The notes: generated from the letters alone by a model not told the origin. A stretch of 64,000 nucleotides of DNA from Planctomycetota bacterium (GCA_021776775.1 JAJFFE010000145.1:30884-94883), one strand, 5' to 3'. Counted from the first letter of the stretch, positions 4,651-49,740 are shown. Translations and numbers: made by a program.

Positions 4651-4989
4651 CGCGGCCGCAATGTTCCTCTGTCTTGGGCTCGCTTTTGTGCGATGAATCG
4701 GAACGGCAGGCCGGCCCTGACGCGGCTGGCTCGGCGGACGCAGATGGGGTTGCCCCAGCAAAACAAATGTCGAGCGATACAGTATCGCGCAGCCCGGGGA
4801 CCAGTGACCAACCGATCCACGCGAATCCCGTCCGGGCGAGGTCTACGTCACCGACTAGTGATGTAGACCGCAGTCTCAGCAAGACCCCGCCTGCGAAGCT
4901 GCGCTGTCGGGTAGGTACAGTCCCACAGTTCGCGTCACATCGTTTGCACGATGTCGCATTCGGCGGCGCAACCAAACGACGCCTCATGT

Positions 4990-5270
4990 TCGCCCCTCAG
5001 ATACCGCACACAGCCCGGTACGGATCACGCCGCCCAGCGAACATTGCTCATCGCCCAACACGCAGCCGCGAGCATCGGGCATCCTCGCTGCCCCTCGCCC
5101 CGAACCGACACGTTCGCGCTCCGATGCGCCCGTCCCTCGTTCTCAGCCGTGCTTGTTTGCCAAACCGCAACCCGGCGACCGACCTCACTCCCGTGCCTCA
5201 TAGTCGGTGGCGAGCCAGCGACTCGACCATCCCCAACCCACTGGTGTTCGAGCCACGCCACGATGTGCCC
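4990..5270 (+). repeat. ~285-bp dispersed repeat, copy 2 (more diverged in the 5' third)
   Basis: 5078-5270 aligns almost base-for-base with 29270-29459. It shares the terminal GGTGTTCGAGCCACGCCACGATGTGCCC. Confidence 0.75.
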
Positions 5271-5326
5271 GTCTCCTTCGTCTTCATCTCCCGCTGCGCG
5301 ACGTGATGGCCTCGCAACAGGACAGC

Positions 5327-5986: not shown

Positions 5987-6053
5987 ATGTATGCCACGAC
6001 ACTCGACATTGCGCGGAGGGGACCGAGCCCGGTCGACGATTGGCTAACTGTGA

Positions 6054-9983: not shown

Positions 9984-10718
9984 TCACCGCTTCTTGGCCG
10001 TCTTCTTTCGAACGAACTTCTTGCGCGGAACCTTCTTGATTGCCATCTGCTTGCGCGGAGTGGCCCTCTTGCTGGCAACTTTCTGGGCCGAACGACTCGC
10101 CGGCTCGTTCGATGTAGGTGTGCTCGCCCGGACCGCGGTCTTCTTCTTGGCCACCTTCTTCTTGGCCACTGTCTTCGTCGCCGCCTTCTTGCTCGAGCTC
10201 TTCTTCGCGACCTTCTTGGCGGCGGCCTTCTTCTTCCCGACCTTCTTTGCCGCCTTCTTGCTCGCGGCTTTCTTGCTTCCCTTGGACGCCGTCTTCTTCT
10301 GGGCTTTCTTCTGGGCTTTCTTCTTTGCCTTCTTTGCCGCCGGTGTCGGTTGCGTCGCGGTAGCACTCGGATCACCTAGCTGCGCTAACACGCGCTTCGG
10401 CGCGATCAATCGGAAACTCTCATGCACGAGGGTTTCGATGTAGTGCCAGTCATCGACAGCGTTGGCGTCGACCGAGACCCATCCGTGTTTACCGACGTAG
10501 GCAGATTTCGTGAATCGTTCGTCGAGGCTGATCAGCTCCAACGCGTGATCCATCTCTAGCTTGAACCCGATGCTGCGCTTGTCGCCCTTCTCGCTGTACC
10601 CGGCGAAGATCTTGTCTTTCACGCGGAAGTGGGGATTACCCCAAGTCATCGTCTCTTGGGTCTCGGGCAACGCGAGACAGATGGATCGCATCTTGTTCAA
10701 AGCTGTTCCGCCGCGCAC
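9984..10718 (-). CDS. MmcQ/YjbR-family domain fused to a Lys/Ala-rich histone H1-like C-terminal tail
   Basis: N-terminal ~120 aa is ICLALPETQETMTWGNPHFRVKDKIFA...HGWVSVD (YjbR-like). The C-terminal ~120 aa is AKKAKKKAQKKAQKK...VAKKK repeats. Confidence 0.7.
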   Translation of the reverse strand: MRGGTALNKMRSICLALPETQETMTWGNPHFRVKDKIFAGYSEKGDKRSIGFKLEMDHALELISLDERFTKSAYVGKHGWVSVDANAVDDWHYIETLVHESFRLIAPKRVLAQLGDPSATATQPTPAAKKAKKKAQKKAQKKTASKGSKKAASKKAAKKVGKKKAAAKKVAKKSSSKKAATKTVAKKKVAKKKTAVRASTPTSNEPASRSAQKVASKRATPRKQMAIKKVPRKKFVRKKTAKKR

Positions 10719-13141: not shown

Positions 13142-14122
13142 ATGGCGGCGCGCTGGGAATCCCTGGTTCACACTCCCCTCACCATTCGCTGTCGAGTTCG
13201 CGCCGCTCTGCGCGATTCGTCGCGACCGATCCTCGTCGGACCGTGGTGTTCCGAGGTTGGCTTCGAGTTGCTCTACTGGATTCCATTCCTGCGCAAGACA
13301 CTCGGCGACGCGGGTATCGACCCCGCCCGAGTCATCGCCGCCTCGCGAGGCGGTGCCGAGCCGTGGTACTCCGGTATTGCCGATACGTACTACGACTTGA
13401 TGGACGCCAAGTCCCACGCGGAGTACCTCTCGTACACGACAACTCGAGAAGCGCAGCAAGGCGTCAAGAAGCAGCTCGACCTCGTCGCGTGCGAAAGAGC
13501 GCTGATCAACGAGCTCTCGTCCGACTTCGAAGACCCGGTGGTTTTTCATCCATCGCTCATGTATCGACTCTTCGCCGCCGTATGGCGCGGAATGAAGCCG
13601 GTCGAATACGCCCTGGAGCGGTGCCACCACGTTCCGATGGATCGCAACCTGCCGCTGCCGGAAGGTTGCCCGTTCGGCGACGAGCCGTACGCGGCAATCA
13701 AGTTGTACCGATCCGACGCGTGGCCGCAGAACGAATCGAGCGCGGCGTTCGTACGAGACTTGCTCGCGAGTCTTGCGTCTCGCATGCCGGTGGTCGTCCT
13801 GCAAGCAGGGTTCGACATGGACGATCACCGCGATCACAGCCTGCCCGACGGGGTCCGCATCATCGACGCGTCGCCATGGATCGAACCGCGCACGAACCTT
13901 GCGGTACAGTCTGCTATCGTCGCGCACGCCAGCGAACTGCACACGACCTATGGCGGCTTTGCGTATCTCGGGGCGCTACTAGGAGTCCCGACGACCGCGT
14001 ACTACTCCAACGACGGGTTCGTGGCGGACCACCTCCAAGTGTCGAACCAGATTTTTTCGGGCCCTGGCTTCGCTGCTATTCGCGAGCGCCGCATCGTCGA
14101 TGGAGCACTGGCGTCCGAATGA
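13142..14122 (+). CDS. GT-B-like protein, paralog of the C-terminal half of the 23668..26724 protein
   Basis: ILVGPWCSEVGFELLYWIPF and TYGGFAYLGALLGVPT match VVIGPWMGEVGFEVLYWIPF and TYGGFSYLAPFYGVPS in the fused paralog. The start is uncertain (track 12932). Confidence 0.55.
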   Translation: MAARWESLVHTPLTIRCRVRAALRDSSRPILVGPWCSEVGFELLYWIPFLRKTLGDAGIDPARVIAASRGGAEPWYSGIADTYYDLMDAKSHAEYLSYTTTREAQQGVKKQLDLVACERALINELSSDFEDPVVFHPSLMYRLFAAVWRGMKPVEYALERCHHVPMDRNLPLPEGCPFGDEPYAAIKLYRSDAWPQNESSAAFVRDLLASLASRMPVVVLQAGFDMDDHRDHSLPDGVRIIDASPWIEPRTNLAVQSAIVAHASELHTTYGGFAYLGALLGVPTTAYYSNDGFVADHLQVSNQIFSGPGFAAIRERRIVDGALASE

Positions 14123-14150: not shown

Positions 14151-15632
14151 ATGAAACCGAAGACACCGCTACGCGTGTTGATCGTGCTTCAGTACCCGGG
14201 CTACCTACGGTACTTCGACTCCGTCATCGAAGAGCTGTCGCGCCGCGGCCACTCGGTCACGGTCTCGTTCGACAAGTTGGACAAACAGCGCGAAGGGCTG
14301 ATCGGTCTCGAGGCAATCCCGCGGGTCACCCGCATCGATACGATCTCGAATCGCCACGACGCGTTTCGGATCGTCGCGCGCGAGTTGCGCACCGTCATCG
14401 ACTACGTCCGTTACAAGCACCCCGACTTTCGAAGTTCGCCGTATCTCAGCGAACGAATGCGCGACGCGCTCCCGCGACCGCTGCGCTGGCTCGGCGGGTT
14501 GTCGACGCTGTCGCCGAAGACGGTCGATCGCACGATTCGTGGTCTTCTCTACCTGGAGAAGTGCATCCCGAGCTCTTCGCAAATTCGTGCAGCCATCGAG
14601 TCGGTCGCGCCCGACGTCGTCTTGGTCAGTCCTCTCGTCACCAAGGGATCTCCACAGGTCGACGTCGTCAAAGCGGCGCAAGCGTTGGGAGTGCCGTGCG
14701 CGTTGGGCGTCGGAAGTTGGGACCACCTGACGACGAAAGGGTTGGTGCGTATCGTTCCCGATCGCGTGTTCGTTTGGAACGAACTACAACGCGCCGAAGC
14801 GGTCAAGTATCACCAAGTCGAAGCGGGTCGCGTGAAGGTGACGGGCGCGCAAAACTTCGACAAGTGGTTCCACTGGCGGCCGGGGAGCTCGGCCGACGAA
14901 TTCCGCGCGAAGGTCGGCCTGCCCCCGGGCAAGCCGTACGTGCTCTTCGTCGGATCGACGGCGTCGATCTCCGCCCCGGACGCCGAGGTCGAGTGGGTGA
15001 CGGAGTGGCTACGTCAAATGCGCAGTCAAGACGCACCGCTCGCCAAGACGTCGGTGCTGATTCGTCCGCACCCGTACAATCTGGGTCGGTGGGACAAGGT
15101 CGACCTGTCGGAGTTCGCTAACGTCGCGGTCTATCCACGATTCCAAGCAAACCCGGTGGCGTCCGACGACCGCCAAGACTACTTCGACTCGATTCACCAC
15201 TCGGCCGCCGTCGTCGGCATCAACACGAGCGCCATGATCGAAGCGGCCATCCTCGACAAGCCGGTGCACACCATTCGCACGGAAGAGTTCGCACGCACGC
15301 AAGAAGGCACGCTGCACTTCCGCTACATGCTGCCTGAGAACGGCGGCTTCCTGAACGTCGCGGCGGACCCTGCCGAACACTTCGAGCAGCTCGCCAGCAA
15401 CCTCAAGGATCCAGAGACGAGCCGAGCGATCACGCAACGGTTTGTCCGCCACTTCCTGCGACCGCTCGGCATCCATCGAGACGCCACGCCGACCTTCGCC
15501 ACGCAGCTCGAACGGCTCGGCGCCCAGCAACCATCGCCGCGGCGCGATCGTACGATTGCCCATCCGGTCACCGCGATGTTTGCGCTCGCCGGCTTCGCGT
15601 TGAACGCACTGCGCCGACTTCGACGCGGCTAA
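14151..15632 (+). CDS. TagF-like CDP-alcohol phosphotransferase / GT-B protein, paralog of the N-terminal half of the 23668..26724 protein
   Basis: LGVGSWDHLTTKGLV, VVGINTSAMIEAAILDKPVHTIRTEEFARTQEGTLHFRY and LIRPHP match the fused paralog. The start is uncertain (track 14100). Confidence 0.6.
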   Translation: MKPKTPLRVLIVLQYPGYLRYFDSVIEELSRRGHSVTVSFDKLDKQREGLIGLEAIPRVTRIDTISNRHDAFRIVARELRTVIDYVRYKHPDFRSSPYLSERMRDALPRPLRWLGGLSTLSPKTVDRTIRGLLYLEKCIPSSSQIRAAIESVAPDVVLVSPLVTKGSPQVDVVKAAQALGVPCALGVGSWDHLTTKGLVRIVPDRVFVWNELQRAEAVKYHQVEAGRVKVTGAQNFDKWFHWRPGSSADEFRAKVGLPPGKPYVLFVGSTASISAPDAEVEWVTEWLRQMRSQDAPLAKTSVLIRPHPYNLGRWDKVDLSEFANVAVYPRFQANPVASDDRQDYFDSIHHSAAVVGINTSAMIEAAILDKPVHTIRTEEFARTQEGTLHFRYMLPENGGFLNVAADPAEHFEQLASNLKDPETSRAITQRFVRHFLRPLGIHRDATPTFATQLERLGAQQPSPRRDRTIAHPVTAMFALAGFALNALRRLRRG

Positions 15633-23667: not shown

Positions 23668-26600
23668 ATGATCGCTCCCCAACCTCCGAACGCTGACGCC
23701 GTGTCCGCGACCCCGTCGGTTTCGACGGGCGGCGCGACCGCTCCATCGAGACTCCATCTCGCGTTTTGCATGCGGCATTCGGGCTACTTACGACTTTACG
23801 AGTCTTTCCTCAGGGAACTCGCCGCACGCGGTCACACCGTTCATCTCGTGATCCGACAGTTCGACGCACTCTACGACGAGCGCGTGCTCGGAGCGCTCGA
23901 AGAAGAACTGGTGCCACACCTGACTTGGGAAGTACTCGACGAAACCCGTCTCGAGCCGGGTCGGCTGCTGCTGCGACTGCTGCGTTGCATGCAGGACTAC
24001 CTGCGTTACTTAGCCCCGGCGTACCGAACCGCGCACTCGCTGCGCGCGCGCGCAGCAACCCGCCTCCCACGAGTCGCGCGCGCTGTTTGCAACGTCGTCG
24101 GTCGATCGCAAGCGTTGAGCTGGGGGCTGATTCGACTCCTGCGCGGCGTCGACCAATGTGTCGGCGCCCCGACCTCACTCGTCGAATGGCTCGACGCCCG
24201 TCAACCCGACGCGCTGATCATCACACCGCTCGTCGACTTCGGGGCGACTCAGTTGCCGTGGATGAAGGCAGCGCGAGTCGCCAGCACACCGACCATTCTC
24301 GCCGTCGCGAGTTGGGACAATCTGACCAACAAGGGGTTGGTCCAGCTCGAACCCGACGGCGTCCTCTTGTGGAACCGCTTTCAAGAAAAGGAAGCGCGAA
24401 CCTTCCACCGGTTGACGCGGACACGCATTGCCACGACCGGTGCGCAAGTCTTCGATCCATGGTTCGCCATGAAGCCGTCGACGACCGAAACGGAGTTCCG
24501 CCAACGGGTGGGGCTCGAGCCCGATCGCAACCACCTGCTGTACCTGTGCTCTTCGCCTTTCATCGCCCCGGACGAGGTCTCTTTCGTGAAGCGTTGGCTC
24601 GACGCCTTGAGAAACTCGGATGCTCTCGGCGCGAAGACGGTCGGCGTGTTGATTCGGCCGCACCCACAGAATGCCACGCAGTGGGACGCGTTCGATGAAA
24701 CCGAGTACCCGAACGTCGCCGTTCACCCCCGCGGCGGGGCGACCCCGATTCACACCTCGACGAGAAACGACTTCTTCGACTCGATGGCGCACGCGCAAGC
24801 GGTCATCGGCATCAATACGAGCGCTATGATCGAAGCGGGCATCCTCGACAAGCCGGTGTTCACCATTCAAGACGACGACTTCGTGGCCACGCAGGAGGGC
24901 ACGCTTCACTACCACTACCTGGTCGACGGCGGTCTGCTGACAGTCGCCAACGACCTGCCGGAGCATCTCGACCAACTTCGGGGCACCTTGATCGGGGCCG
25001 ATCCCCAAGCGGAAGCGCGTCGTTCGTTCGTCGCGGAGTTCATTCGTCCGCACGGCTGGGAAACGCCGGCCGCCGAGGTATTGACCGACAGCGTGGAATC
25101 GATGACGGCCGAGCTGCGCGCTCATCCGCGAACGCCCAGCATCGGCGAACGAGTCGCCGCGCTCCCAAGTGGCGCGTCGAAAGCGCTCGCTCGCCACCCC
25201 CGCGCCGCGCTGTTGTTGACCGCGTTGGCGTTGCCATTCCTGACGCTCGGCCGCTGGATCGCCAGTTGGGGCAACAGTCGACGAGTGCTCCATCTTCTGC
25301 GCTGCGGACATCAACGCGACGCGGCGGCGATCCCCGATCCGTTGCTGTTCGGCGATCTCGTGCGAGCGCCCGGACGCAAGGTTTCCGTGCTGCTCAATGG
25401 ATCGATTGCTGCCCGCTGCCTCGGCGTGGCCCTGACGCCGTTGTTGCTCGTCGCGTTTTTCTTGGTGATCGTCTACGGCGCGGCCGTGGCCATCATCGAT
25501 CTCCCCTTCATGCTGGGGTACCCGCTGTTTCTGCTCTGCACTCGCTACCGCTCGCAACCACGAACATTGATCCGCCTCCTGATCGTCGGTCCGACCAAAG
25601 CGCGCACCAGCGCGAGCAAGCTGGACGCGATCCGTGATCCGATTCAGCTGCTCGACGCCATGGACCAACGCTGCTACGGAACGGCGCCGATATCAGCGGT
25701 GCTCAACAAGCTGCGCGCCAGCGATCGACCGGTCGTCATCGGACCGTGGATGGGTGAAGTCGGCTTCGAAGTTCTCTACTGGATTCCGTTTGTCTCATGG
25801 CTCTTGCGCGCGGCGAAGGTCGACAGCGACCGAGTTCATATCGCTTCGCGAGGCGGAACCGCGGAGTGGTATCAGGCGATCGGCGGCCGATACGAAGACC
25901 TGCTTGGCCACCACACGGTCGAAGAGTTCCGCGCGTTTCAGGACCGGCGGGTCCGCGAGATCGGACACCAAAAGCAGTCGAAGATCACCGGGGCTGATCG
26001 CTCGGCGCTGGCCCCTGTTCTCGACGCTTGGGATGTCCAGCAGTACGAGTTGGTGCATCCATCGATCATGTACGGCGTCTTCCGCCACTTCTGGTTCGGC
26101 GAGATGCCGCTACGCGCAATCGGCTTGCTGTGCGATTTCAAACGTCTCGAACACCACCGACCGGAGTGGAGCGTCGTTTCCGACTTGCCCGAACAATACG
26201 TCGCCATGAAGTTCTACTTCTCCGAGAGCTTCCCGGACACGTCCGAAACTCGTGCGTTCGTGCGCGACGTTCTGGAGACCGTGGCTCGACACAACAAGGT
26301 CGTGCTCCTCAACACGCAGTTGGAACTCGACGAGCACAAGGAACTGAGCGACGGAATACCCGAGAGTGTCTTGGTTCTGTCGAAGGAGATGCTTCCGCAC
26401 AACAACCTCGAGGTTCAAACCCAGGTGATCGCGGGGGCCAGTGCGTTCATCGGAACGTACGGCGGGTTCTCTTACCTCGCGCCCTTCTACGGAGTTCCGA
26501 GCTTCGCGTTCCATGCCAACGAAGACGGATTCGTGCCGGAGCATGTCGACACTGCTCACCTGGCGTTTCGAACGGCAAACGAACATGCCGCTCTTGCCGC

Positions 26601-26724
26601 GAACTTCACTATGTTCAGCACGCAACAGTGGAAAATCCTAGCCAGCTTCTTCGGTAGCGCCGCCGCCGCGAGCAAAGAAGAATGGCGACGACTTCCGAAT
26701 GACGTTTCCGCTCCGAAGCCTTAG
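23668..26724 (+). CDS. 1018-aa fusion of a TagF-like phosphotransferase/GT-B domain and a second GT-B-like domain (polysaccharide biosynthesis)
   Basis: The N-half is homologous to 14151..15632. The C-half is homologous to 13142..14122. A hydrophobic linker (LLLVAFFLVIVYGAAVAII) lies between the halves. Confidence 0.7.
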   Translation: MIAPQPPNADAVSATPSVSTGGATAPSRLHLAFCMRHSGYLRLYESFLRELAARGHTVHLVIRQFDALYDERVLGALEEELVPHLTWEVLDETRLEPGRLLLRLLRCMQDYLRYLAPAYRTAHSLRARAATRLPRVARAVCNVVGRSQALSWGLIRLLRGVDQCVGAPTSLVEWLDARQPDALIITPLVDFGATQLPWMKAARVASTPTILAVASWDNLTNKGLVQLEPDGVLLWNRFQEKEARTFHRLTRTRIATTGAQVFDPWFAMKPSTTETEFRQRVGLEPDRNHLLYLCSSPFIAPDEVSFVKRWLDALRNSDALGAKTVGVLIRPHPQNATQWDAFDETEYPNVAVHPRGGATPIHTSTRNDFFDSMAHAQAVIGINTSAMIEAGILDKPVFTIQDDDFVATQEGTLHYHYLVDGGLLTVANDLPEHLDQLRGTLIGADPQAEARRSFVAEFIRPHGWETPAAEVLTDSVESMTAELRAHPRTPSIGERVAALPSGASKALARHPRAALLLTALALPFLTLGRWIASWGNSRRVLHLLRCGHQRDAAAIPDPLLFGDLVRAPGRKVSVLLNGSIAARCLGVALTPLLLVAFFLVIVYGAAVAIIDLPFMLGYPLFLLCTRYRSQPRTLIRLLIVGPTKARTSASKLDAIRDPIQLLDAMDQRCYGTAPISAVLNKLRASDRPVVIGPWMGEVGFEVLYWIPFVSWLLRAAKVDSDRVHIASRGGTAEWYQAIGGRYEDLLGHHTVEEFRAFQDRRVREIGHQKQSKITGADRSALAPVLDAWDVQQYELVHPSIMYGVFRHFWFGEMPLRAIGLLCDFKRLEHHRPEWSVVSDLPEQYVAMKFYFSESFPDTSETRAFVRDVLETVARHNKVVLLNTQLELDEHKELSDGIPESVLVLSKEMLPHNNLEVQTQVIAGASAFIGTYGGFSYLAPFYGVPSFAFHANEDGFVPEHVDTAHLAFRTANEHAALAANFTMFSTQQWKILASFFGSAAAASKEEWRRLPNDVSAPKP

Positions 26725-26905: not shown

Positions 26906-27181
26906 CTACACGTGACAAGTTAACGTTGAACAGAAGTCGTGTAACGCCCCGACCAGGTTCTTCGCGTGGAGGCTTCTGACAGGCGGGTGGGGCGCATCGT
27001 GGCGTGGCTCGAACACCAAGTGCACCTGAAATGCCCGAATCTCCTCCGGCCCCATCCCCGAAGGACAACGCCCAAAGAACCGCGCAAACGCCGCAACACA
27101 CTCCACGTACCGACGAACCGTCACCTTCGAGTACTTCCGAAGCTGCATGTCCTCGATCATCCGCTGACGAAGCTGAGTCAT
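26906..27181 (-). pseudogene. intI: truncated integron-integrase-like tyrosine recombinase gene (intI-like). Only the N-terminal ~55 codons are intact.
   Basis: Strong RBS AAGGAG, 7 nt, then ATG. MTQLRQRMIEDMQLRKYSKVTVRRYVECVAAFARFFGRCPSGMGPEEIRAFQVHL matches the IntI N-terminal SAM-like pattern (R.YS..T..YV...F..F...P..MG..EI.AF..HL). The reading frame then enters the 28-bp repeat end (VFEPRHDAP...) and stops. Confidence 0.6.
26989..27018 (-). repeat. 28-bp terminal fragment of the ~285-bp repeat, located exactly at the intI truncation junction
   Basis: GGGCGCATCGTGGCGTGGCTCGAACACC is shared with the ends of repeat copies 1 to 3. Confidence 0.7.
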
Positions 27182-27426
27182 ACCATGACTCCTTTCCGCT
27201 TCGTCTGTCGGACAGATCCATCGAGTTGTATACTTGCGAGCGTAAACGGATGGTCAAGAGGGCGCCGCCCCAGAGCCTAGCGCGCAGCGCTTGAGTTCAA
27301 CTAGTCGCCGCAGCAGACCAAGGGCAGTCTTCCTTCTTCACCACCGGGTGTCACCGGGTCGCATCCGCCCGTACAATCCAAGCTTTCCCTAATGCTGCCC
27401 CTCGCAGCTGAGCTTCGACGTTAGGG
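27182..27426 (+). promoter_or_regulatory. attI-like / promoter region between intI start and first cassette core
   Basis: Perfect 13-bp palindrome TCTGTCGGACAGA at 27204-27216, just upstream of the intI start. TACAAT -10-like box at 27372-27377 faces the cassettes. First R' core GTTAGGG at 27420-27426. Confidence 0.4.
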
Positions 27427-27438
27427 GGACAACCGCAA

Positions 27439-27816
27439 GTGAGAAGGCGTTCGCACAGTATCGTACTACTCGCTCTCCTCGTCCCCGTGCTGCTCTGGTC
27501 GACGTGGCGCGTGGGTTTTCACATCTCTTACGAACCAACGCTGAATTTCCTTGTTTATCCCGAAACCGCTAACGGCGCCGCATTCGTAAAGCGCGTATAC
27601 CTGCCGCGCTTCGAGACGATGTACGACTATGGGCTGGACTGGATTGGCCGCGGGTGCCCGTTCTCAGAGTTCGAGCGTCACATCGACCCTGGCACCAAGA
27701 TCACGTACTATCCGCCAGACGGCTGTTTGTCGTTTGACGTCGTCTACGACAGAGTTGGCCTACTCGACAGAATATCGACCCTCGAGTATGCGCATATCGA
27801 CCTATCGCCACCCTAA
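27439..27816 (+). CDS. cassette ORF 1: small secreted or membrane-anchored hypothetical protein
   Basis: GTG start 12 nt after the GTTAGGG core with a GGGGGA Shine-Dalgarno. N-terminal signal or TM segment. The stop TAA is embedded in CCCTAAC. Confidence 0.5.
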   Translation: MRRRSHSIVLLALLVPVLLWSTWRVGFHISYEPTLNFLVYPETANGAAFVKRVYLPRFETMYDYGLDWIGRGCPFSEFERHIDPGTKITYYPPDGCLSFDVVYDRVGLLDRISTLEYAHIDLSPP

Positions 27817-27938
27817 CTCGTCGCTACCGACCAACGGGGCAGTAGCTTGTGCCACGTCGCGGTCACCCGCACAATGTCGCTTCGTCGAATCCAGTTTCAT
27901 CATCCGCTGCCCCCGGCAGCTGAGCTTCAACGTTGGAC
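27811..27938 (+). other. attC-like site 1 (128 bp): R'' CCCTAAC ... R' G|TTGGAC
   Basis: R'' is the exact complement of the upstream R' GTTAGGG. The 3' half (GCTGCCCCCGGCAGCTGAGCTTCAAC) is conserved with the other cassette junctions. Confidence 0.55.
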
Positions 27939-27945
27939 GGATCGA

Positions 27946-28362
27946 GTGGAAGTCACTCTCCCCGGGATATACATATCCGAGAACTTCGGGGTTGTGCGAA
28001 GCCTGTCGGAGCTCAATACCGGAAACGCGCTGAGCGTCAAAAGCGGCTTCTTTCGGGATCTGGAGTTCTACGACAACGCGGGCAACTCGTGGCGTCCGGC
28101 GAAAGTCGAAGTTCACCCGCGCCCGACATGGTGGCGGGTGCTCTTGAACCTTCGTTGCGAGGTCGAAATCGAGTGGCAACTTGTGGGTCCCCTCGTACCG
28201 TCTCAAGTCGCTGAACGCATTTGCGAGCTGATCGACCAGGACCCGGACGACCTATACGATCAGTTTGTCACCCACGAGGAGTTGAAGGCCCTGGTGCGCG
28301 CAGCACAGGATCCAGCGGCGCTCGTACGGGTGGTTGCGACTCTTGGCGACCCGGAGGAATGA
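27946..28362 (+). CDS. cassette ORF 2: hypothetical cytoplasmic protein (~139 aa)
   Basis: GTG 27946 with a GGACGG Shine-Dalgarno 5 nt upstream. The track ORF 27847 over-extends through attC1. Confidence 0.45.
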   Translation: MEVTLPGIYISENFGVVRSLSELNTGNALSVKSGFFRDLEFYDNAGNSWRPAKVEVHPRPTWWRVLLNLRCEVEIEWQLVGPLVPSQVAERICELIDQDPDDLYDQFVTHEELKALVRAAQDPAALVRVVATLGDPEE

Positions 28363-28366
28363 GACC

Positions 28367-28497
28367 GTCCAACACAGATGGCTTCTATACGAGATCGCCA
28401 AGCAATTGACGACACGACAAGGCCGCACCGACGTTGCCGAACGTGACAACGCAGACGGATAGAAGGTCGGCGGTCTCAGGGTAGAAGCGAGTTGGAC
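28367..28497 (+). other. attC-like site 2 (131 bp): R'' GTCCAAC (5 nt after stop) ... R' GTTGGAC
   Basis: Imperfect inverted repeat: GTCCAAC-acagatg-GCTTCTA-tac-GAGATCGCC ... GGCGGTCTC-aggg-TAGAAGC-ga-GTTGGAC. It has asymmetric unpaired bases, as attC bottom-strand hairpins do. Confidence 0.6.
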
Positions 28498-28634
28498 TCT
28501 GCCGCGGCGCGGTGTTCGGCTATGGAGTTTCTATTGAACGGAACTCTTGGTCGAACGCTTCGAAACGCCCGACGAGGTGGCGGCCAGGGTCGAGATGCGT
28601 TTGCGCATCGGGGAACGCCACTCACTTGTTCCAT

Positions 28635-29057
28635 TCATCCCTCGATCGGGATTCGCGTGGACCGGTGGTTCGTTGAGCCCCGTGTTGTTGGGTACAGGGT
28701 CACTGGATGTCGTGCCGCGTGATACTGAGGTCGCGGCTCGCGTACTCCGGTTGGTTGATCGATGGGTCCTGCCGACTTACGCGACGCGGCGATCTTTGAA
28801 CGCATGAACTCAGTTCCGAACTCCCGTTCCGCGTACCAAGCGTTGTGTGTTGGGCAGAGGGCTCGCAGGTTGATCTCGTCATTCGAGCCGTCCTTGCTGA
28901 ACGGAACCAAGTGATCGATCTGAAGGCCTGTTCGCACGCCACAGCGATGCTGATCACGGCCGACGAATTCGCACCGCTGCCCGGCTTGGTGGAGCACTCG
29001 CTCACGTGTTTCACTTGGAATGTATCGGGATCGTTCCTTGGCCTTTGCAGAGTCCAA
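28635..29057 (-). CDS. HNH endonuclease (inside cassette X, opposite orientation)
   Basis: CEFVGRDQHRC...LQIDHLVPFSKDGSNDEINLRALCPTHN is an HNH/Cys4 motif. Confidence 0.7.
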   Translation of the reverse strand: MDSAKAKERSRYIPSETRERVLHQAGQRCEFVGRDQHRCGVRTGLQIDHLVPFSKDGSNDEINLRALCPTHNAWYAEREFGTEFMRSKIAASRKSAGPIDQPTGVREPRPQYHAARHPVTLYPTTRGSTNHRSTRIPIEG

Positions 29058-29177
29058 GCCGTCAGAACTGGGCGAAACCTCGATGAAAACCCTGTCAAAC
29101 GAAACACGACAAAGTTCTAAAATTCATCGCGCGAAGCTGAATCCAAAACAGACGAACCACCGCGACCGCCAAACCTC

Positions 29178-29459
29178 GCCCGGACGGGGTGCCCATCCGC
29201 ATCTCCGACAGGGATCACATAGCCCCAGCCAACATCCACATATCCCACCGACACCCAACGGAGTCGGGCCCACCCGCTGCCCCTCGCCTGGAACAGAATG
29301 GTTCACGCCCCGATGCGCCCGTCCCTCGTTCACACCCGTACTTGTTTGCCAACCCGCGACCCGGCGACCAACGCCACTCCCGTCCCTCATAGTCGGTGGC
29401 GAGCCATCGACTCGACCATCCCCAACCCACTGGTGTTCGAGCCACGCCACGATGCGCCC
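29178..29459 (+). repeat. ~285-bp dispersed repeat, copy 3 (inside cassette X)
   Basis: Aligns with the reverse complement of 4360-4650 and with 4990-5270. Confidence 0.8.
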
Positions 29460-29652
29460 GTCACCTGCTTCAGGTCGCATGCGACCGTTTGCAGTGTTGG
29501 CACCGCCGCGTCGAACAAGAGCGTGTGCATCGACTTCGGATTGCCGAGCGCGATGGGACGCAACTGTTCCGGCAACGTGAACAGCGCGTGGGAGTCAGGC
29601 ATCATGAAATCACGTCGCGCGGCACTACCGCGCAGCGGTTGGGTTCAACTCG

Positions 29653-29772
29653 GCGCGGCAGCCGACAAAGGGCGTCTGCTCTCTTCAGTGCCAGGTGCTC
29701 TCGGCCCACATCCTCGGTTACAATCCACGCTCTAACGAATGCTGCCCCGGCAGCTGATCTTCAACGTTAGGC
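29653..29772 (+). other. attC-like site of cassette X (tentative): R'' GTTCAAC ... R' G|TTAGGC
   Basis: R'' is 6/7 complementary to the R' (GTTGGAC) that opens cassette X. The conserved 3' half is GCTGCCCCGGCAGCTGATCTTCAAC. Confidence 0.35.
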
Positions 29773-29776
29773 GGAG

Positions 29777-30220
29777 ATGAGCGAGGAGCGTGGGAAACAA
29801 GACAAGCCTGGGTGGACTGGGTCGTATGACCACAACAATGGTCGAACCGCGGCCACGGTCGAGCTCCTGTGTGAGTCCACCCAACTGGCAGCGGACTCTC
29901 GCTTTCAGGACTTCGCCAATCAGCTTGCCCAGCACGTGGCCGCCCTTGATCCCATCGCGCTGTCCACTGACGACATTCCCGAGGCTGTGTCCCGAATCCG
30001 CAGCGAGCTCTCTCGCACGTATGCGGACAAGCCGGGTGAGATTCGGGAGAAGCTTGTCGCAGCAAAGGCCCAGCTCTACGCAACCAACTCGTGCCTTCTC
30101 GACCAGAAGTGGGTGTTCGAGGACGAGCGCAGTGTTCGTGAAGTGTTGGAGCATTACGGCCAACGCTTCGGGGAACAGCTCTCTGTTGGGGCGTTCTCTC
30201 GAACAGAACGGTCCGCCTAA
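29777..30220 (+). CDS. cassette ORF 3: truncated EF-Ts paralog (core/dimerisation domain only, no N-terminal EF-Tu-binding UBA-like domain)
   Basis: Colinear match to the EF-Ts core: TAATVELLCESTQLAADSRFQDFANQLAQHVAA...KPGEIREKLVAAKAQ...LLDQKWVFEDERSVREVLEHYGQRFGEQLSVGAFSRTE. The stop TAA is inside GCCTAAC, the complement of the upstream GTTAGGC. Confidence 0.65.
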   Translation: MSEERGKQDKPGWTGSYDHNNGRTAATVELLCESTQLAADSRFQDFANQLAQHVAALDPIALSTDDIPEAVSRIRSELSRTYADKPGEIREKLVAAKAQLYATNSCLLDQKWVFEDERSVREVLEHYGQRFGEQLSVGAFSRTERSA

Positions 30221-30399
30221 CTAACCGGTCGCCGCAACAGCCACGGGTCGGTTACCTCTCCCCGCGGTCGGTTTCACCGTTTCGACGTTGGATCGCGCCG
30301 CCGGCTCGCTACGTTCACGTTGCTCGGTAACCGCGCCGGCAGCCGCGTGTCCACTTTTCCTCGGTGAGGTCCGCGCTTTGGACAGTCCGCTCGAGTCAG

Positions 30400-30801
30400 T
30401 CAGTTGGTGAAGCTTCCCTCGAAGACGATGGGGTACTCCGCGGCGTGGCCCGCCTCGAACTTCACCTCGCCGGACAGTCCCGCGAGTTCGCCGTAGCCCG
30501 AGTCGGCAATCACGTCCCACACCGAGTTCACGACCCCCTCGTGAAAGCTCCCGGTGTGACGAAAGACAAACCCTCCGCTCTTACCGTTGAGCGATCCCTT
30601 GAACTGCTCGACACCGACGAACTCCGCGTGCTCGGCGTTGACGTACACCATGAGGTAGTCGACATCGCCGGTGCCATCGAGCCCTCCCGAGTACGTCTTA
30701 CTAACAGACGCTTTGGTAACGCGACGATCCTTGTCCGGGGCTCCGGACACTTCCTCCTCCCATGAAGCGATCACAAAGGTCGACTCGATCTTTAAGGACA
30801 T
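30400..30801 (-). CDS. DUF3224 domain protein
   Basis: ~133 aa. YLMVYVNAEHAEFVGVEQFKGSLNGKSGGFVFRHTGSF fits the DUF3224 pattern. Confidence 0.55.
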   Translation of the reverse strand: MSLKIESTFVIASWEEEVSGAPDKDRRVTKASVSKTYSGGLDGTGDVDYLMVYVNAEHAEFVGVEQFKGSLNGKSGGFVFRHTGSFHEGVVNSVWDVIADSGYGELAGLSGEVKFEAGHAAEYPIVFEGSFTN

Positions 30802-30811
30802 GACCGTGGAC

Positions 30812-31171
30812 TCACTTCTTGTAACGGGGTTGGTACAACTGAACGCGAAGATCGCCGGGCATCTTGAAGTACGTCGCTAGCCCGTAGCCCATATCTTGAA
30901 CTGCGTCCGTGAACTCGACGCCGCGTTCCTTCATCTCCGCCATCGTCGCTTCGACATCGTCACAGTAGAACGAAATATCGTGCGTGCCGTTGGGCCGACC
31001 TTCTTTGCCCGACTCGTCCGAGGGGTGGACGCCCATGTCTGCTTCAGGCATGTCGAAGATCAACCACCCGCCACCGACATCCGTCGCGGAGAAACCCAGC
31101 TTGTCACGGAGAAACTCACGGAGCGCCTCGGCTTTCGACGAGTAGAACATCGTGTGTACGCCACGAATCAT
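30812..31171 (-). CDS. VOC (glyoxalase/bleomycin-resistance) family protein
   Basis: Short βαβββ module: FYSSKAEALREFLRDKLGF...GTHDISFYCDDVEAT. Confidence 0.6.
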   Translation of the reverse strand: MIRGVHTMFYSSKAEALREFLRDKLGFSATDVGGGWLIFDMPEADMGVHPSDESGKEGRPNGTHDISFYCDDVEATMAEMKERGVEFTDAVQDMGYGLATYFKMPGDLRVQLYQPRYKK

Positions 31172-31374
31172 GGCAGTGCCCTTTCAACTCGTTGGCCGGC
31201 TGCGGCCAAGAGAGGTGGGCGATTGTCGTTCGAGGTCGCCGAGGCGTCTAGTCACGAAAAGTTGAATCGGTCCATCGGCGGCGTGACGCGCCGATAGAGT
31301 CTGCGCTAGGACTAGCGTATCATCGCAGCACGACTCACGGCCACGAACTGACCTCTCTCGAGTAGCAACGCGAA

Positions 31375-33405
31375 GTGTCCATGTCTGAATTGTTCGACCC
31401 TGATCTGACGGAGCCTTCTCTCGAATGGAGAGATGGCGCCCCCTTGTCGACCGAGTTTGACGATGTGTATTTCTCCAACAGCGGCGGACCGGAGGAAACA
31501 CGACACGTGTTTCTCACCGGCAACGGCTTGCCGCAGCGATGGAGCGGCAGAACCCACTTCGTAATCGGCGAGACCGGGTTCGGAACCGGGCTCAACTTCA
31601 TCGAGACGTGGCGGGCTTGGCGGTCGGATCCCGAGAGCTGCACTCGACTTCATTTTCTTTCGGTGGAGAAGCACCCGATCAGTCGGGAGTTGCTGAGTCG
31701 CGCCCTTCGCGCGCATCCTGAGCGCGAGCTGGTGGACGACCTCATTGCAAAGTATCCGGTTCGCTGCCCCGGCTTTCACCGGGTGGAGTTCGAGTCCGGT
31801 CGGGTGGTCTTGACGCTGCTGTTCGGCGACGTGCTCACCATGCTGAGTCGAATCGGCAACGGCGCAGGGAGAACGGTCGACGCGTGGTTTCTGGACGGGT
31901 TCACTCCTTCGCGCAATCCCGAGATGTGGTCGATCGACGTGTTTCGCGAGATCGCTCGCCTGTCACGTACGGGCGCAAGTTTCGCCACGTTTACCTCGGC
32001 GGGTTTCGTGCGTCGCGGACTCGAGCAAGTCGGGTTCGATGTCAGGAAGTGCAAGGGGTTTCGCCACAAGCGGGAGATGGCGCACGGAGAGTTCAAGACG
32101 GTGTCCGGTTGCGATGAATCGTCAAAGCCGTGGCACCGGTGGCCGGCGGCGCCGACCGCAACGCAAGCACTGGTCGTCGGCGGCGGCTTGGCCGGCACCG
32201 CGACCGCTCGCGCTCTCAGTCTCCGGGGGTTTGACGTCACGCTATTGGAACGTCACGACGACATAGCGACCCAAGCGTCGGGAAGTCCGGCGGGTATCTA
32301 TCACGCCGACCTCATGCGTGAGTGCACGCCGCGCGAACGACTCTTCACGGGGGCGGTCGGCTTCACGGCCCGTCGGCTGCAGAGCTACTTCGATGGTACA
32401 TTGGACGTCGCCGGAGCGCCGTGTGGGGCGGTGCACCCCGTGACCTCCGCGAAGCGCGCGCAACACCACCGCGACGTGACGGAACGACGCGCCGTCTTTC
32501 CCGAATTCGTAGAGTGGCTATCGCCGGACGAGGCGAGCGATGTCGCCGGGCTTGCCATCGAACAGCCGGCACTCTTCTACCCGCAAGCGGGCTGGGTATG
32601 CCCGGCCGATGTGTGCCGTGCAAACATCGAGTCGGGACACGAGGTTCGCGTGCGTACCGGGACCCACGTGGCCGGGCTCGAACGGGTAGGCGATCGTTGG
32701 GTGGCGACGAACGACGAAGGCGACGTTGTCGGAGAAGCTCCGATCGTGGTGATTGCGACCGCCGGCGACGCGCTTCACCTTCCGATCGTCAACTGGCTTC
32801 CGTTGCGACAACTGCGTGGGCAGATCACTCGCGTCGAAGCGACCGCGGCCAGCGACCGCCTACGTTCAGTCGTCTACTACGAAGGGTATGCCACGCCGAG
32901 CCACGACGGATTTCACACACTGGGCGCCACGTTCGATCACGACTCGGTCGACGTCACGGTCCGCGACGAAGACCACGTCGCCAATCTCGACCGCCTCTGC
33001 GAAGGTTTCCCGGCACTTCATTCCTCGCTGGCGACACGGTCGGCACGTCGCGTGGGACGCGCAGCGCTACGAGCCGTCTGCCCCGATCACCTTCCCATGA
33101 TTGGACCGGTCCCCGACGAAGCACGGTTCCGCCGCCAGTACGACGGCTTGCGGTTCGGGCGATCGATCGACGAGCAGTCGCCGGCGCCGGTTCTGCCCGG
33201 GCTGTACGTGTCGGTCGGTCACGGCTCCCGCGGGATTGTCTCGAGCCAGTTCGGCGCGGAGATCATCGCCAGCCAGATTGCCGGCGACCCCATGCCGACG
33301 GAGCGGGGAATCGTCGACGCCCTGACTCCGGGCCGTTTCCTGGTTCGCTCGCTGGCGCGCGGCGGCGGCGACGGCCACGCCGAGGCTGACGAAGACGACG
33401 GCTAA
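31375..33405 (+). CDS. mnmC: bifunctional tRNA 5-methylaminomethyl-2-thiouridine biosynthesis protein MnmC (methyltransferase + FAD oxidase)
   Basis: N-terminal EFDDVYFSNSGG...WFLDGFTP (MnmC1/DUF752). C-terminal FAD-binding VVGGGLAGTATA and DAO-type oxidase. Confidence 0.8.
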   Translation: MSMSELFDPDLTEPSLEWRDGAPLSTEFDDVYFSNSGGPEETRHVFLTGNGLPQRWSGRTHFVIGETGFGTGLNFIETWRAWRSDPESCTRLHFLSVEKHPISRELLSRALRAHPERELVDDLIAKYPVRCPGFHRVEFESGRVVLTLLFGDVLTMLSRIGNGAGRTVDAWFLDGFTPSRNPEMWSIDVFREIARLSRTGASFATFTSAGFVRRGLEQVGFDVRKCKGFRHKREMAHGEFKTVSGCDESSKPWHRWPAAPTATQALVVGGGLAGTATARALSLRGFDVTLLERHDDIATQASGSPAGIYHADLMRECTPRERLFTGAVGFTARRLQSYFDGTLDVAGAPCGAVHPVTSAKRAQHHRDVTERRAVFPEFVEWLSPDEASDVAGLAIEQPALFYPQAGWVCPADVCRANIESGHEVRVRTGTHVAGLERVGDRWVATNDEGDVVGEAPIVVIATAGDALHLPIVNWLPLRQLRGQITRVEATAASDRLRSVVYYEGYATPSHDGFHTLGATFDHDSVDVTVRDEDHVANLDRLCEGFPALHSSLATRSARRVGRAALRAVCPDHLPMIGPVPDEARFRRQYDGLRFGRSIDEQSPAPVLPGLYVSVGHGSRGIVSSQFGAEIIASQIAGDPMPTERGIVDALTPGRFLVRSLARGGGDGHAEADEDDG

Positions 33406-46693: not shown

Positions 46694-47545
46694 ATGCGAA
46701 CACTCGTCCTAGGCGCCGCGATCGCCGTCCTTGTGGCTCTGCCGTGCACCAGCTTTGCTCAAGGTGACGAAAAGAAGCCCGCACCTGCGGACCCGACACC
46801 CGTCGAGGCCGTCCTCGCGAAGTTTGCCGCGGCCAGTGGCGGCCCGGCACTCAAGAAGATCAAGAGCCGGAGCGTCGAAGGCACATTCGAAGTCGTCGGC
46901 CAAGGCATCAGCGGAAAGTCGAAAGTCGTCCAACGCGGAACCGACATGGTCACCGAGATGGATACGCCGTTCGGAAAAGAGACGCACGGTGTGTTGGGCA
47001 AGGTCGCTTGGGAGATGTCGAGCCGTGGTGATCGACTGAAGACGCCCATCGAGTTCGAGCAGATCATGCGATCGCTCCACCTCGACATGCCGCTGCGCTT
47101 CAAGTCCCTGTACGCGAAGATCACACACGAGGGCGTGGTCGAGTTCAAAGGCAAGAAGTGCGCGAAGCTCATCTGCACGCCACCGTCGATCAAGCTGAAA
47201 GACGGCACGACGAAAGTCGTTCCGGATGAAGTCTACTTCTTCGGTGAAGAATCAGGTTTGGTCCACGGCATGGAGATGGAGACCGAATCCCAAATGGGCA
47301 AGCTCAAGGTCCTCACGACGGCGGCGGACTACCGAGACGTCGACGGCGTCATGATCTCGTTTCTTTCTACCCAAGAGGTGGCCGCGTTCGGCATGACCGT
47401 GAAGTTGATCACGACGAAGGTCGAACAGAACATCGAACTGCCAGAAACGGCATTCGCCTTGCCCGCGTCGATCGTGAAGCTGATCGAAAGAGACAAGGAA
47501 GCGGCTGACAAGAAGAAGGATACACCGGAGAAGAAGGCGGGCTAA
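46694..47545 (+). CDS. hypothetical secreted protein (possibly LolA-like fold) with K/E-rich C-terminal tail
   Basis: Signal peptide MRTLVLGAAIAVLVALPCTSFAQ. The track start at 46619 is an alternative. Confidence 0.45.
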   Translation: MRTLVLGAAIAVLVALPCTSFAQGDEKKPAPADPTPVEAVLAKFAAASGGPALKKIKSRSVEGTFEVVGQGISGKSKVVQRGTDMVTEMDTPFGKETHGVLGKVAWEMSSRGDRLKTPIEFEQIMRSLHLDMPLRFKSLYAKITHEGVVEFKGKKCAKLICTPPSIKLKDGTTKVVPDEVYFFGEESGLVHGMEMETESQMGKLKVLTTAADYRDVDGVMISFLSTQEVAAFGMTVKLITTKVEQNIELPETAFALPASIVKLIERDKEAADKKKDTPEKKAG

Positions 47546-47625: not shown

Positions 47626-49740
47626 TCAACGACGGTACAAGTGACCGGCGGGAATTTTCTGTCGGCGCATCGTCGAACTAGACATCTCCAGCTGCAGCTC
47701 GGCGTCTCCCGTCGCTTGGAAGTACTCGATCCGAATGGGATGCGCACCAGTCGCCAGCGCGACGACCGCTGAGCGTTCGACCATGCCGTGCAGCCCGTCG
47801 TTGTCGATCAAGAGTTTGTCGTGGAGATACAGACGACTACCGTCGTCGCTCGTCAAATAGAGTGTGTAGACGTCGTTGGTGGGGACTTCCAAATACGCCT
47901 CGAACACGATCGCGTACTGCTCTTTTCGCTCCGTCACATCGATTCGAATTCCGTCGATCTCACCACTGCGTGTCGGTTTTCCCTCGAGATCGGCCAAGCT
48001 CTGCCAAGCACGTTCGTACAACGCGAACGAAACTCCGGGTACCAATGCGACCTTGGGTCGCGCGCCGACTTGCAATTCAGCGGGCGAGTAGCGCCGAAAC
48101 GAAAGGCGAGCTTCGGCTAAGCTCGTCACTTCGCCACGCACTGCGATCGCTCGAACCTCACATGTGCGATCGACCCGTATGGGTCGCTGATACCGGGTCG
48201 ACTCACGACTAGGCGACGCCCCGTTTGTCGTGTAGCGAATCTCAGCCTTGGGATCGTCGGAGCGTAGGGTGACGGTAGTCTCGCCAAAGAAGTGCGCCGC
48301 CGGTGTGTGAATCGCTACCGAAGGTGGCGCGGCATAGACCTCGACCGAGGACAGTATTGGGCACGCTCGTGACTCATGAATCGTAACCCGAATGCGGGAG
48401 GCGCGGACGGTTCCGGTCAACACGATTCGCTTGTTCCCGATAGTGGTTCCCCGTGCGATTTCTACCCACGAATCCCCCGTCCCGGCGTCGATCGAAAACG
48501 ACTTCGTCCTCTGCCCGAGCGCGATGGGTTCCCGAAGCACGACGCGATCGAAGACTTGGGGAGCGCGGAAGTCGATCAACGCCGACGCCGATTGGACCGA
48601 ATCGTTGGTTGCCCAGTAGGTTTCGTTGCTGCCGTCGGTCAGGTTTGCCGGACTAAATCGGACCGACGCACCGCGGACGTTCGACGCGGTAGCGCTTGCG
48701 CCGCGGGCGATGTCGTTCGCGTAGATGCGATCGAGCGCGGCGCGAAACTCCATGACACTGGCGACGTCGCGTTCGTGGACGAGCCCGCGCCGGTCGACGG
48801 GGAAATTGAGAAGCAGATTGGCGTTTCGCCCGACGGAACCGTGATAGATGCGAAGAAGGTGCTCAGCGCTCTTCACTTTCTCGTCCTGCGACGCGTGGTA
48901 GTACCACCCTGGACGTATCGACACGTCGCATTCGGCCGGAACCCAGTGCGTCCCGTTCGCATGTCCAACGGTGAGTTCGCGGGCGTGCGGGTAACCGGGG
49001 TACACTTCGCCCCTTCGCAAGAACGACCAGCACGTCTCTCCGGCAAAACCCCGTTCGTTCCCGACCCAACGCACGTCGGGGCCGCCGTCCGAAAAGATAA
49101 CTGCATTCGATTGGCATTCGCGCACCACGCCGACGAACGCCGGCCAGTCGTATTGCTGACGCTTTCCGTTGGGTCCCTCGCCGCAAGCACCGTCGAACCA
49201 AACCTCGAACACTTCGCCGTAACCCGTCAGTACCTCGCGAAGTTGGTTCTTGAAATATTCGTTGTATACGTCGGAGTTGCCGTAGTCCGGGTGGTGTCGA
49301 TCCCAAGGCGAGAGGTATACGCCAAACTTCAGCCCGAACTCGCGGCAAGCCTCGGATAGCGAGCGAAGCACGTCACCCCGGCCCTCTTGCCAATCGCTCG
49401 ATGCGACGTCGTGCTCAGTGTAGTCCGAGGGCCAAAGACAAAAGCCGTCGTGATGCTTGGCGGTGATGATGACGCCGCGAAGCCCAGCGTCTCGGAAGAC
49501 TTTGGCCCATTGCCGGCAGTCGAGTTCGGTCGGGTTGAATTGCTTGGGATCTTCCCGGCCCTCACCCCATTCGTGGTCCGTAAACGTGTTCATGTTGAAA
49601 TGAACGAACGCGTACAGCTCGAGCTCCTGCCACGCCCTTTGCCGTGCATGAGGAACGGGGCCAACCGGCGCCGGGGGCTCTGAGCTCGATTGGGAGAAGC
49701 CGAACGAGACGACCGCGGCAAGGAGAATATGGCCGATCAC
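47626..49740 (-). CDS. alpha-L-fucosidase (GH29) with F5/8 type C (discoidin) and C-terminal PA14 domains
   Basis: FVHFNMNTF...AKHHDGFCLWPS...GVYLSPWDRHHP...EVWFDGACGEGP. Discoidin-like middle region and PA14-like tail. Confidence 0.8.
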   Translation of the reverse strand: MIGHILLAAVVSFGFSQSSSEPPAPVGPVPHARQRAWQELELYAFVHFNMNTFTDHEWGEGREDPKQFNPTELDCRQWAKVFRDAGLRGVIITAKHHDGFCLWPSDYTEHDVASSDWQEGRGDVLRSLSEACREFGLKFGVYLSPWDRHHPDYGNSDVYNEYFKNQLREVLTGYGEVFEVWFDGACGEGPNGKRQQYDWPAFVGVVRECQSNAVIFSDGGPDVRWVGNERGFAGETCWSFLRRGEVYPGYPHARELTVGHANGTHWVPAECDVSIRPGWYYHASQDEKVKSAEHLLRIYHGSVGRNANLLLNFPVDRRGLVHERDVASVMEFRAALDRIYANDIARGASATASNVRGASVRFSPANLTDGSNETYWATNDSVQSASALIDFRAPQVFDRVVLREPIALGQRTKSFSIDAGTGDSWVEIARGTTIGNKRIVLTGTVRASRIRVTIHESRACPILSSVEVYAAPPSVAIHTPAAHFFGETTVTLRSDDPKAEIRYTTNGASPSRESTRYQRPIRVDRTCEVRAIAVRGEVTSLAEARLSFRRYSPAELQVGARPKVALVPGVSFALYERAWQSLADLEGKPTRSGEIDGIRIDVTERKEQYAIVFEAYLEVPTNDVYTLYLTSDDGSRLYLHDKLLIDNDGLHGMVERSAVVALATGAHPIRIEYFQATGDAELQLEMSSSTMRRQKIPAGHLYRR

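Follow-up and report, generated by a model that had tools for sequence, protein, structure and literature searches.

attC sites are imperfect palindromes of 57–141 bp with RYYYAAC and GTTRRRY ends, and they form a hairpin when single-stranded. In canonical sites the R box is set apart from the L box, on either arm, by an unpaired spacer of 5–6 nt (PMC5027507), and two or three extrahelical bases stand on the R''/L'' arm, the first and the last being separated by a 6-bp stem that is required (PMC5027507, PMC7439510). Read on the bottom strand, these extrahelical bases are typically a G, 9 nt from the R box, and a T, 16 nt from it (PMC7439510), and the crossover position is at G|TT (PMC5027507). 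In mobile integrons the bottom strand of attC is on average 2.1 kcal/mol more stable and enriched in purines (PMC5027507). Clusters in which two or more attC sites lie within 4 kb of each other without an integron integrase are termed CALINs, for which rearrangement or loss of intI has been proposed as origin (PMC4889954).

In this study we focus on site X, a 131-nt imperfect palindrome located in a window of 64 kb, by which we mean the whole stretch of DNA that was analysed. X resembles the attCs of aadA1/aadA7, cmlA1 and qacE and the Vibrio VCRs by its RYYYAAC/GTTRRRY ends, its position at the 3' end of a promoterless ORF and the complementarity of its R'' to the preceding R', and as in the class it folds, single-stranded, into a hairpin with unpaired regions. 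It differs from those sites by a spacer of 7 × 2 nt instead of about 5 × 6, by the lack of single-base bulges separated by a 6-bp stem, by a reversed strand-stability and purine bias, and by a covariance score of 0.1 bit against 16–32 bits for held-out attCs. The four other sites of the array (A to D, referred to as type 1) form a homogeneous attC family comparable to those of sedentary chromosomal integrons, and are related to the attCs of a Gemmatimonadaceae MAG (L004, L010). Like described CALINs, the locus has few cassettes, no nearby intI and IS elements alongside, which fits an origin by rearrangement or intI loss. attC sites and CALINs being already well described, X would be a new and atypical member, and the finding an ordinary one.

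Site X within the cassette array

The array (27295–30293) comprises five sites of 79–132 nt, all on the + strand, and four cassettes of 512, 559, 1275 and 521 nt, with stop codons within or just ahead of R''. The sites and the cassette that concerns us are the following.

27295–27426, + strand: site A, type-1 attC, R'' GTTCAAC, R' GTTAGGG (from motif search and model R2)
27811–27938, + strand: site B, type-1 attC, R'' CCCTAAC holding the TAA stop of ORF 27439–27816, R' GTTGGAC
27933–28491, + strand: cassette 2, 559 nt, from the TTGGAC after the G of B R' to the G of X R'
28367–28497, + strand: site X, 131-nt imperfect palindrome, attC-like site of cassette 2
29643–29772, + strand: site C, type-1 attC, R'' GTTCAAC, R' GTTAGGC
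30215–30293, + strand: site D, short degenerate type-1 attC, R'' GCCTAAC holding the TAA stop of ORF 29777–30220, R' GTTGGAT

Site X itself, with the + strand taken as top strand from the orientation of the array, is built as follows.

28367–28373, + strand: R'' box GTCCAAC, fitting RYYYAAC, 7/7 complementary to site B R' and to its own R'
28374–28380, + strand: unpaired spacer ACAGATG of the R'' arm, 7 nt
28381–28387, + strand: second box GCTTCTA, L''-like, pairing 7/7 with 28482–28488
28388–28390, + strand: TAC, R''-arm side of a 3 × 4 internal loop
28391–28399, + strand: third box GAGATCGCC, pairing 8/9 with 28469–28477
28400–28468, + strand: variable centre, VTS-like, 69 nt, A- and C-rich on this strand
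28469–28477, + strand: partner of the third box, GGCGGTCTC, read from the sequence
28478–28481, + strand: AGGG, R'-arm side of the 3 × 4 internal loop
28482–28488, + strand: partner of the second box, TAGAAGC, L'-like (from the sequence and the pair probabilities)
28489–28490, + strand: unpaired spacer GA of the R' arm, only 2 nt
28491–28497, + strand: R' box GTTGGAC, fitting GTTRRRY

The sequence-only reading had placed these boxes with 7/7, 7/7 and 8/9 pairing and had put the start of the site 5 nt after the stop codon of cassette 2. Both points were confirmed on re-reading the sequence, X starting at 28367, 5 nt after the TGA (28360–28362) that closes the upstream ORF. In the third box a single pair is mismatched, as A.C, on the − strand; on the + strand this pair is a T.G wobble, which gives 9/9 if counted. 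By analogy with described attCs, the crossover point in X R' would be G28491|T28492.

The junctions follow a common register. The R'' box can pair with the R' of the site before it at 7/7 positions for B with A, 7/7 for X with B, 6/7 for C with X and 7/7 for D with C, compared with only 4/7 between R'' and the site's own in-array R' in B, C and D (the invariant AAC/GTT plus one position). With a crossover at G|TT, the TTRRRY that follows each site belongs to the next cassette, so that its R'' complements the preceding R'. This R-box register is the strongest evidence that the junctions would have been made by an integron integrase. B R' and X R' are identical (GTTGGAC), so the 6/7 match of C is by itself no proof of the boundary at X. 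Nonetheless X lies 3' of an ORF, in a co-oriented array of five sites, and its R'' matches B R' at all seven positions.

The ~130-nt elements A, B and C are mutually homologous and share the motif GCAGCTGAkCTTCrACGTTrG, a shorter relative (D) being found after the next ORF. The type-1 L'-spacer-R' motif is also present in bona fide attCs of the Gemmatimonadaceae MAG cassette array (L004, L010), and among the nine loci retrieved by scanning metagenome contigs with the type-1 motif no further cassette array was found. X shares no sequence with this resident family beyond the R-box consensus. X is a foreign-type site standing in the array in register and in the same orientation, and its lack of relationship to the four other sites indicates that cassette 2 was probably captured from a different cassette pool.

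Type-1 sites have features of their own. A conserved TACAATCC box lies about 45 nt upstream of R' (27372–27377 and 29719–29724; CACAAT in B), and in site A it is part of a sigma-70-like promoter match (GTGTCA, 18 nt, TACAAT) directed toward the next cassette. A conserved local hairpin, GCTGCC(n2-4)GCAGC, competes with end-to-end folding. Downstream of site D, small DUF3224 and glyoxalase-family genes (30400–31171, − strand) precede an mnmC-like housekeeping gene (31375–33405). After them no convincing attC was found, a 9.9-bit match at 31179–31299 being dubious, and the array probably ends at D.

The ORFs of the array are typical cassette cargo, being small and either devoid of a Pfam match or carrying an odd domain. 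The cassette-2 ORF spans 27946–28362 when read from the first start after R' (a longer reading, 27847–28362, overlaps site B) and is coding-like in its GC content by codon position (0.69/0.39/0.71). Among 5.8 billion proteins its product matched only itself, and the Pfam scan was empty; the cassette 1 ORF has no Pfam match either. The cassette-4 ORF (29777–30220, 147 aa) contains only the C-terminal part of an EF_TS domain (Pfam E = 4e-19), and such a fragment is unusual as cassette cargo. None of the array cassettes matches the Pfam resistance families scanned.

Cassette 3 is largely inserted mobile-element debris; it holds an HNH gene that is truncated, and also a repeat of 341 nt, named U, of which the window has a further occurrence at 4356–5274. 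The HNH endonuclease ORF (28635–29057, − strand) is opposite to the cassettes and lacks N-terminal sequence present in its homologues; the homology that it shares with these and with the repeat element ends near 28647, ~150 nt from X. At 4356–5274 the repeat is part of a 919-nt element with 201-nt terminal inverted repeats that are 89.6% identical, with a DUF2161 gene on one side and, on the other, an ORF that is putatively LexA-like (the latter from translation only). The solo 341-nt copy in cassette 3 (29122–29462) is 85% identical to it. HNH homologues of 203–216 aa on other NCBI contigs are 82–92% identical to the HNH ORF of cassette 3, and in at least one of them (P0018) the C-terminal end runs on into sequence similar to the repeat. 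This may be a mobile element carrying an HNH gene.

Folding of site X and comparison with canonical attC geometry

Folded as single-stranded DNA, both strands of X form the long hairpin that the sequence-only reading had anticipated, with z about −2.5. The + strand reaches −23.1 kcal/mol (z = −2.49; 3/200 shuffles as stable) and the − strand −21.3 kcal/mol (z = −2.47; 2/200 shuffles as stable), and ensemble pair probabilities are 0.88–1.0 for the R box and the 7-bp box on both strands. X had also been called the best-resolved site, and it is indeed the best-paired hairpin of the array, the four others folding no better than shuffles. Most of the pairing is gone from these four too, in an array that is probably old as well as integrase-less. 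Neither of the canonical extrahelical bases of the bottom strand is bulged in the predicted folds: the G is paired, and the T lies in a 3 × 4 (or 2 × 2) internal loop.

The palindrome is not a chance product. We scanned for RYYYAAC...GTTRRRY pairs 50–150 nt apart, of which the 64 kb contain ten over both strands. The full rule further asks for R boxes complementary at 7/7 positions and for another helix, of 7 bp or more and free of mismatches; X alone passes it, being counted on both strands because its ends are palindromic. Among dinucleotide-preserving shuffles of the window, one in 300 yielded any rule-passing site, and the expectation is about 0.007. Two other pairs far from the array (49064–49174 and 46928–46999; 7/7 and 6/7) have inner helices of 4 bp and fold z of −0.9 and −0.3; they are probably not sites, the count of pairs being near chance (~1.8 per window at 6/7 or better). 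A search of the window with Rfam gave no family that reached the gathering threshold, and down to E ≤ 1 no relevant match either. X was also considered as a terminator and rejected, as it is not terminator-like and has no T-run.

No relative of X was retrieved. The repeat search found no second copy in the window or in any fetched locus, blastn-short of X against all 31 fetched loci returned nothing, and a two-arm pattern of X had 0 matches in metagenome contigs and 0 in viral contigs. One contig (L001) is from the same organism, with one mismatch in 5966 nt, and begins at window position 29554.

For the geometry of canonical sites we used 22 reference attCs, 13 from the Gemmatimonadaceae array and nine from plasmid-borne class 1 integrons. 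An alignment on the outer arms shows, on the R'' side, R'' (7 nt), a spacer of 4–5 nt, 3 bp, a bulge, 6 bp, a second bulge (usually A on the top strand) and the stem, and on the opposite arm 6 bp, 3 bp, a spacer of 5–7 nt and R'. In this shared geometry, which agrees with the published one (PMC5027507, PMC7439510), 84.7% of the cells pair, versus 25–41% when the partners are slid. Spacer lengths were taken from alignment-based threading; a measure based on the first helix after the R box was dropped as too noisy, because short chance helices form inside spacers. The best canonical threading of the reference sites gives spacers of 3–5 nt and 4–6 nt, and X has 7 nt and 2 nt.

The R'' arm of X is in canonical register: counted from the R box, position +9 of the bottom strand is G and position +16 is T. 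On the top strand these positions are C28382, which is paired despite being the canonical extrahelical position +9, and A28389; an A at +16 of the R'' arm is present in all five array sites, X among them. The R' arm is off register, with 2 nt from TAGAAGC to R' and 4 nt to the next helix. Compared with the 22 reference sites, it is ~4–5 nt short beside R', and it is 2 nt long further in, which accounts for the 7 × 2 spacer, the paired G and the T in the 3 × 4 loop. When X is threaded on the canonical L-box and extrahelical geometry, eight of 13 pairs form (seven when reversed), at the level of chance (null mean 7.8), while the reference sites form 8–13 of 13, mostly 11–13.

Two covariance models were built. 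R1 was made of 56-nt pseudo-hairpins, to which each arm contributed its outer 28 nt. It did not recover the long sites on which it had been trained, and since it cannot report matches longer than ~70 nt its silence on X is uninformative. R2 (97 positions, 19 pairs, 19 full-length sites) recovers all its training sites at 45–83 bits and gives 16–32 bits to five held-out attCs of other families: cmlA1 (31.7), a 37-nt L004 site (26.3), estX (20.0), the 141-nt qacE site (17.4) and the site of an orf cassette from L024 (16.0). X obtains 0.1 bit on the − strand, through its R box only, and less on the + strand. The strict expectation that X would score as an attC fails accordingly with R2, a model built here that differs from those of IntegronFinder and HattCI.

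With the same model, A scores 13.8 bits, B 13.1 (from an inner start), C 13.2 (over its inner 43 nt) and D 6.1. In the 64-kb search A, B and C have E values of 0.3–0.5 and are individually at noise level, matches of 12–13.7 bits occurring elsewhere in the window. Taken together, the interval 27295–29772 holds four of the window's five best matches, all of them + strand: sites A, B and C, and a weak site at 28436–28520. Site C contains a mini-hairpin of 43 nt (29730–29772, CTCTAAC...GTTAGGC) that is aligned by both models (16.1 and 13.2 bits) and has a counterpart in site A (CCCTAAT...GTTAGGG); it may be a nested or vestigial short attC inside the long site.

Missing integrase and mobile elements around the array

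A tblastn search with IntI1 against the 64 kb found no tyrosine-recombinase catalytic domain (best E 0.29). Sites A, B and C were found at E < 1, within 2.5 kb, on one strand and with cassette-phase R-box complementarity, and with no integrase in the 64 kb the locus is a CALIN, as judged by our own model and rules and for an integrase search covering 27 kb upstream and 34 kb downstream. Two gene fragments recall recombinases.

26906–27181, − strand: integrase-like ORF of 91 aa, with an N-terminal SAM-like domain only, divergent from the array
29474–29581, − strand: Y2-transposase fragment of 36 codons

We considered the first as a remnant of intI and rejected this possibility. Its homologues are short fragments located beside IS91 Y2 transposases; in locus L014, such a homologue is followed by a Phage_integrase ORF and a Zn_Tnp_IS91/Y2_Tnp ORF, and the integrase of that locus, which is full-length, lacks the IntI-specific insertion, with a gap opposite IntI1 residues 209–236. 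The missing insertion and the IS91-type neighbours point to the integrase of an IS91-like element and not to intI.

Within this ORF, 26993–27181 (− strand) is a 55-codon N-terminal fragment of an IS91-associated integrase. The integrase and Y2 fragments are both cut at a 29-nt sequence, GGGCGCATCGTGGCGTGGCTCGAACACCA (26990–27018 and 29431–29459), the two copies being 100% identical and inverted. As they bracket A, B and X, the sequence suggests that a rearrangement may have occurred between them in the past.

At the end of the IS91-like remnants stands a conserved hairpin, CTAnCCGCGnAGCGGnTTnn, with no gap between it and the GTTCAAC R'' of A and of C. These junctions are at 27277–27301 and 29625–29649 in the window, and others were found in L012 (~3130–3152), L014 (~7846–7868) and L013 (~5276–5296). 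The GTTCAAC junction is repeated in the metagenome loci L012 and L014, and the third locus has GTCCGAT. The family thus seems to insert next to GTTC, and hence to land on attC R'' boxes. L012 also contains two attC matches, of 24.7 bits at 1020–1079 and 19 bits at 6028–6120, both on the − strand.

Further repeats were noted upstream. A 1018-aa ORF without Pfam match (23668–26724) lies just upstream of the array, and several stretches at 13223–13368 and 15177–15502 are 70–78% identical to 24769–26088, indicating a diverged paralogue of this ORF ~10–12 kb away. Periodic repeats of 12–15 nt at 9990–10340 (CTTCTTGGCCRCCTT...) probably encode a Lys/Ala-rich repetitive protein segment on the − strand.

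Nature of site X and alternative readings

The identification of X as an attC by the sequence-only reading was broadly right; what was not supported is strand selection by the unequal loops and, with the model built here, the score as an attC. We consider it probable that X is an attC-type site at the 3' end of cassette 2, in an array devoid of integrase, and that it is an atypical or decayed attC instead of a textbook one, with an unusual or decayed R' arm. X presumably is, or was, an integrase substrate. In such a scheme single-stranded X would fold into a hairpin, the tyrosine recombinase IntI would bind the R box (GTCCAAC/GTTGGAC) and the next helix, strand exchange would take place between A and C in AAC on the recombinogenic strand, equivalent to G28491|T28492 on the + strand, and cassette 2 would be excised or inserted as a unit. 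Given the predicted geometry, the activity of X and the choice of its strand by a canonical integrase are doubtful. An unlikely variant is that X works fully as an attC in which R' and L' stand closer together, its non-canonical hairpin being read by some integrase, perhaps that of the donor lineage; the strand might then be chosen by the large asymmetric spacer and not by extrahelical bases.

X might instead have nothing to do with integrons and be a palindrome of another kind: a structural hairpin, a stem by which a transcript is stabilised or attenuated, or an element of REP/MITE type lying by chance between two ORFs. Cassettes 2 and 3 would then form a single one from B to C. We give this reading little probability. 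X fails the attC covariance model and the canonical geometry, no second copy or homologue shows that it is mobile, and the R'' of C fits B as well as X, B R' being the same as X R'. On the other hand both termini fit RYYYAAC/GTTRRRY exactly, with AAC and GTT outermost, for which the chance is ~1/1024 in an arbitrary palindrome, and X begins 5 nt past a stop codon within an attC array. Indels separate its matched blocks, as they typically do in the arms of attCs but not in the inverted repeats of transposons. It has no T-run and no flanking direct repeat, and unlike REP or MITE elements it has no other copy. From its termini, position and junction register, an integron origin is much more likely than an unrelated palindrome. 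Hairpins are also formed by the ends of IS91-family elements. Remnants of such elements flank the array, and the HNH/U fragment lies 150 nt to the right, so that X might be the terminal hairpin (ori/ter-like) of an invading IS91-like or HNH/U element. This is highly improbable, as the terminal hairpin of the IS family is a different one (CTAnCCGCGnAGCGGnTT, abutting GTTC), conserved in five junctions, X resembles neither that hairpin nor U nor any fetched locus, and the HNH homology stops at ~28647. Equally hard to credit is that the attC of cassette 2 is the weak site at 28436–28520 (GCCGAAC...GTTCGGC), which overlaps the right arm of X. It is the top R2 match of the window (14.1 bits, E = 0.28 window-wide and 0.021 within the array) and its ends are 7/7 complementary. 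Set against this, its CYK score is only 6.7, both boxes depart from RYYYAAC/GTTRRRY at position 4, no pairing extends past the R box (fold z −0.6 and −1.0), its R'' is not complementary to B R', and noise matches reach 12–13.7 bits. With non-consensus R boxes, this low CYK score and no stem, we regard it as noise.

The orientation of X cannot be read from its R boxes because they are perfectly palindromic, and a site inverted relative to A–D, with the + strand as recombinogenic strand, serving a reverse cassette to the right or allowing either strand, would leave the identity of X as an attC unchanged. The + strand of X is more stable by 1.8 kcal/mol (−23.1 vs −21.3), is 60% purine with an AT skew of +0.33 and carries the G.T wobbles, all traits of a bottom strand (PMC5027507), so that with + taken as top X shows the reverse of the usual bias. 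Sites A–D are opposite to X, their + strand being 42–44% purine and their bottom strand 0.6–3.2 kcal/mol more stable. The extra base of the inner 3 × 4 loop is likewise on the 3' arm of the + strand, and the HNH ORF to the right of X is on the − strand. Inner loop and base composition thus point to the + strand as bottom. Other indicators conflict with them: on the + strand it is the AAC arm that has the net unpaired excess (10 vs 6), and G at +9 and T at +16 are obtained only with the − strand as bottom, in agreement with the array, the reverse reading giving T and C. Moreover the cassette-2 ORF stops 5 nt ahead of X on the + strand, and the HNH gene is part of a repeat-flanked element whose homology ends near 28647, ~150 nt away. 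We hold an inverted site to be improbable. The internal loops are indeed unequal, as the sequence-only reading had it (7 vs 2 nt and 3 vs 4 nt), but the two asymmetries oppose each other, and the claim that they are the feature by which IntI selects a strand is not supported.

Our preferred reading remains that X is an atypical attC ending cassette 2. At the level of the organism, the locus is a small, decaying, integrase-less cassette array in a bacterial chromosome of ~61% GC, a routine annotation result. Neither of the two points that X raises touches a long-standing open question. The junction logic, in which R'' is compared with the preceding R', marks the limits of cassettes whose sites get no more than noise-level scores from a canonical attC covariance model, a clean example relevant to the number of cassettes such models miss. 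And if it is true that X recombines, the accepted geometry of attC sites would be widened.
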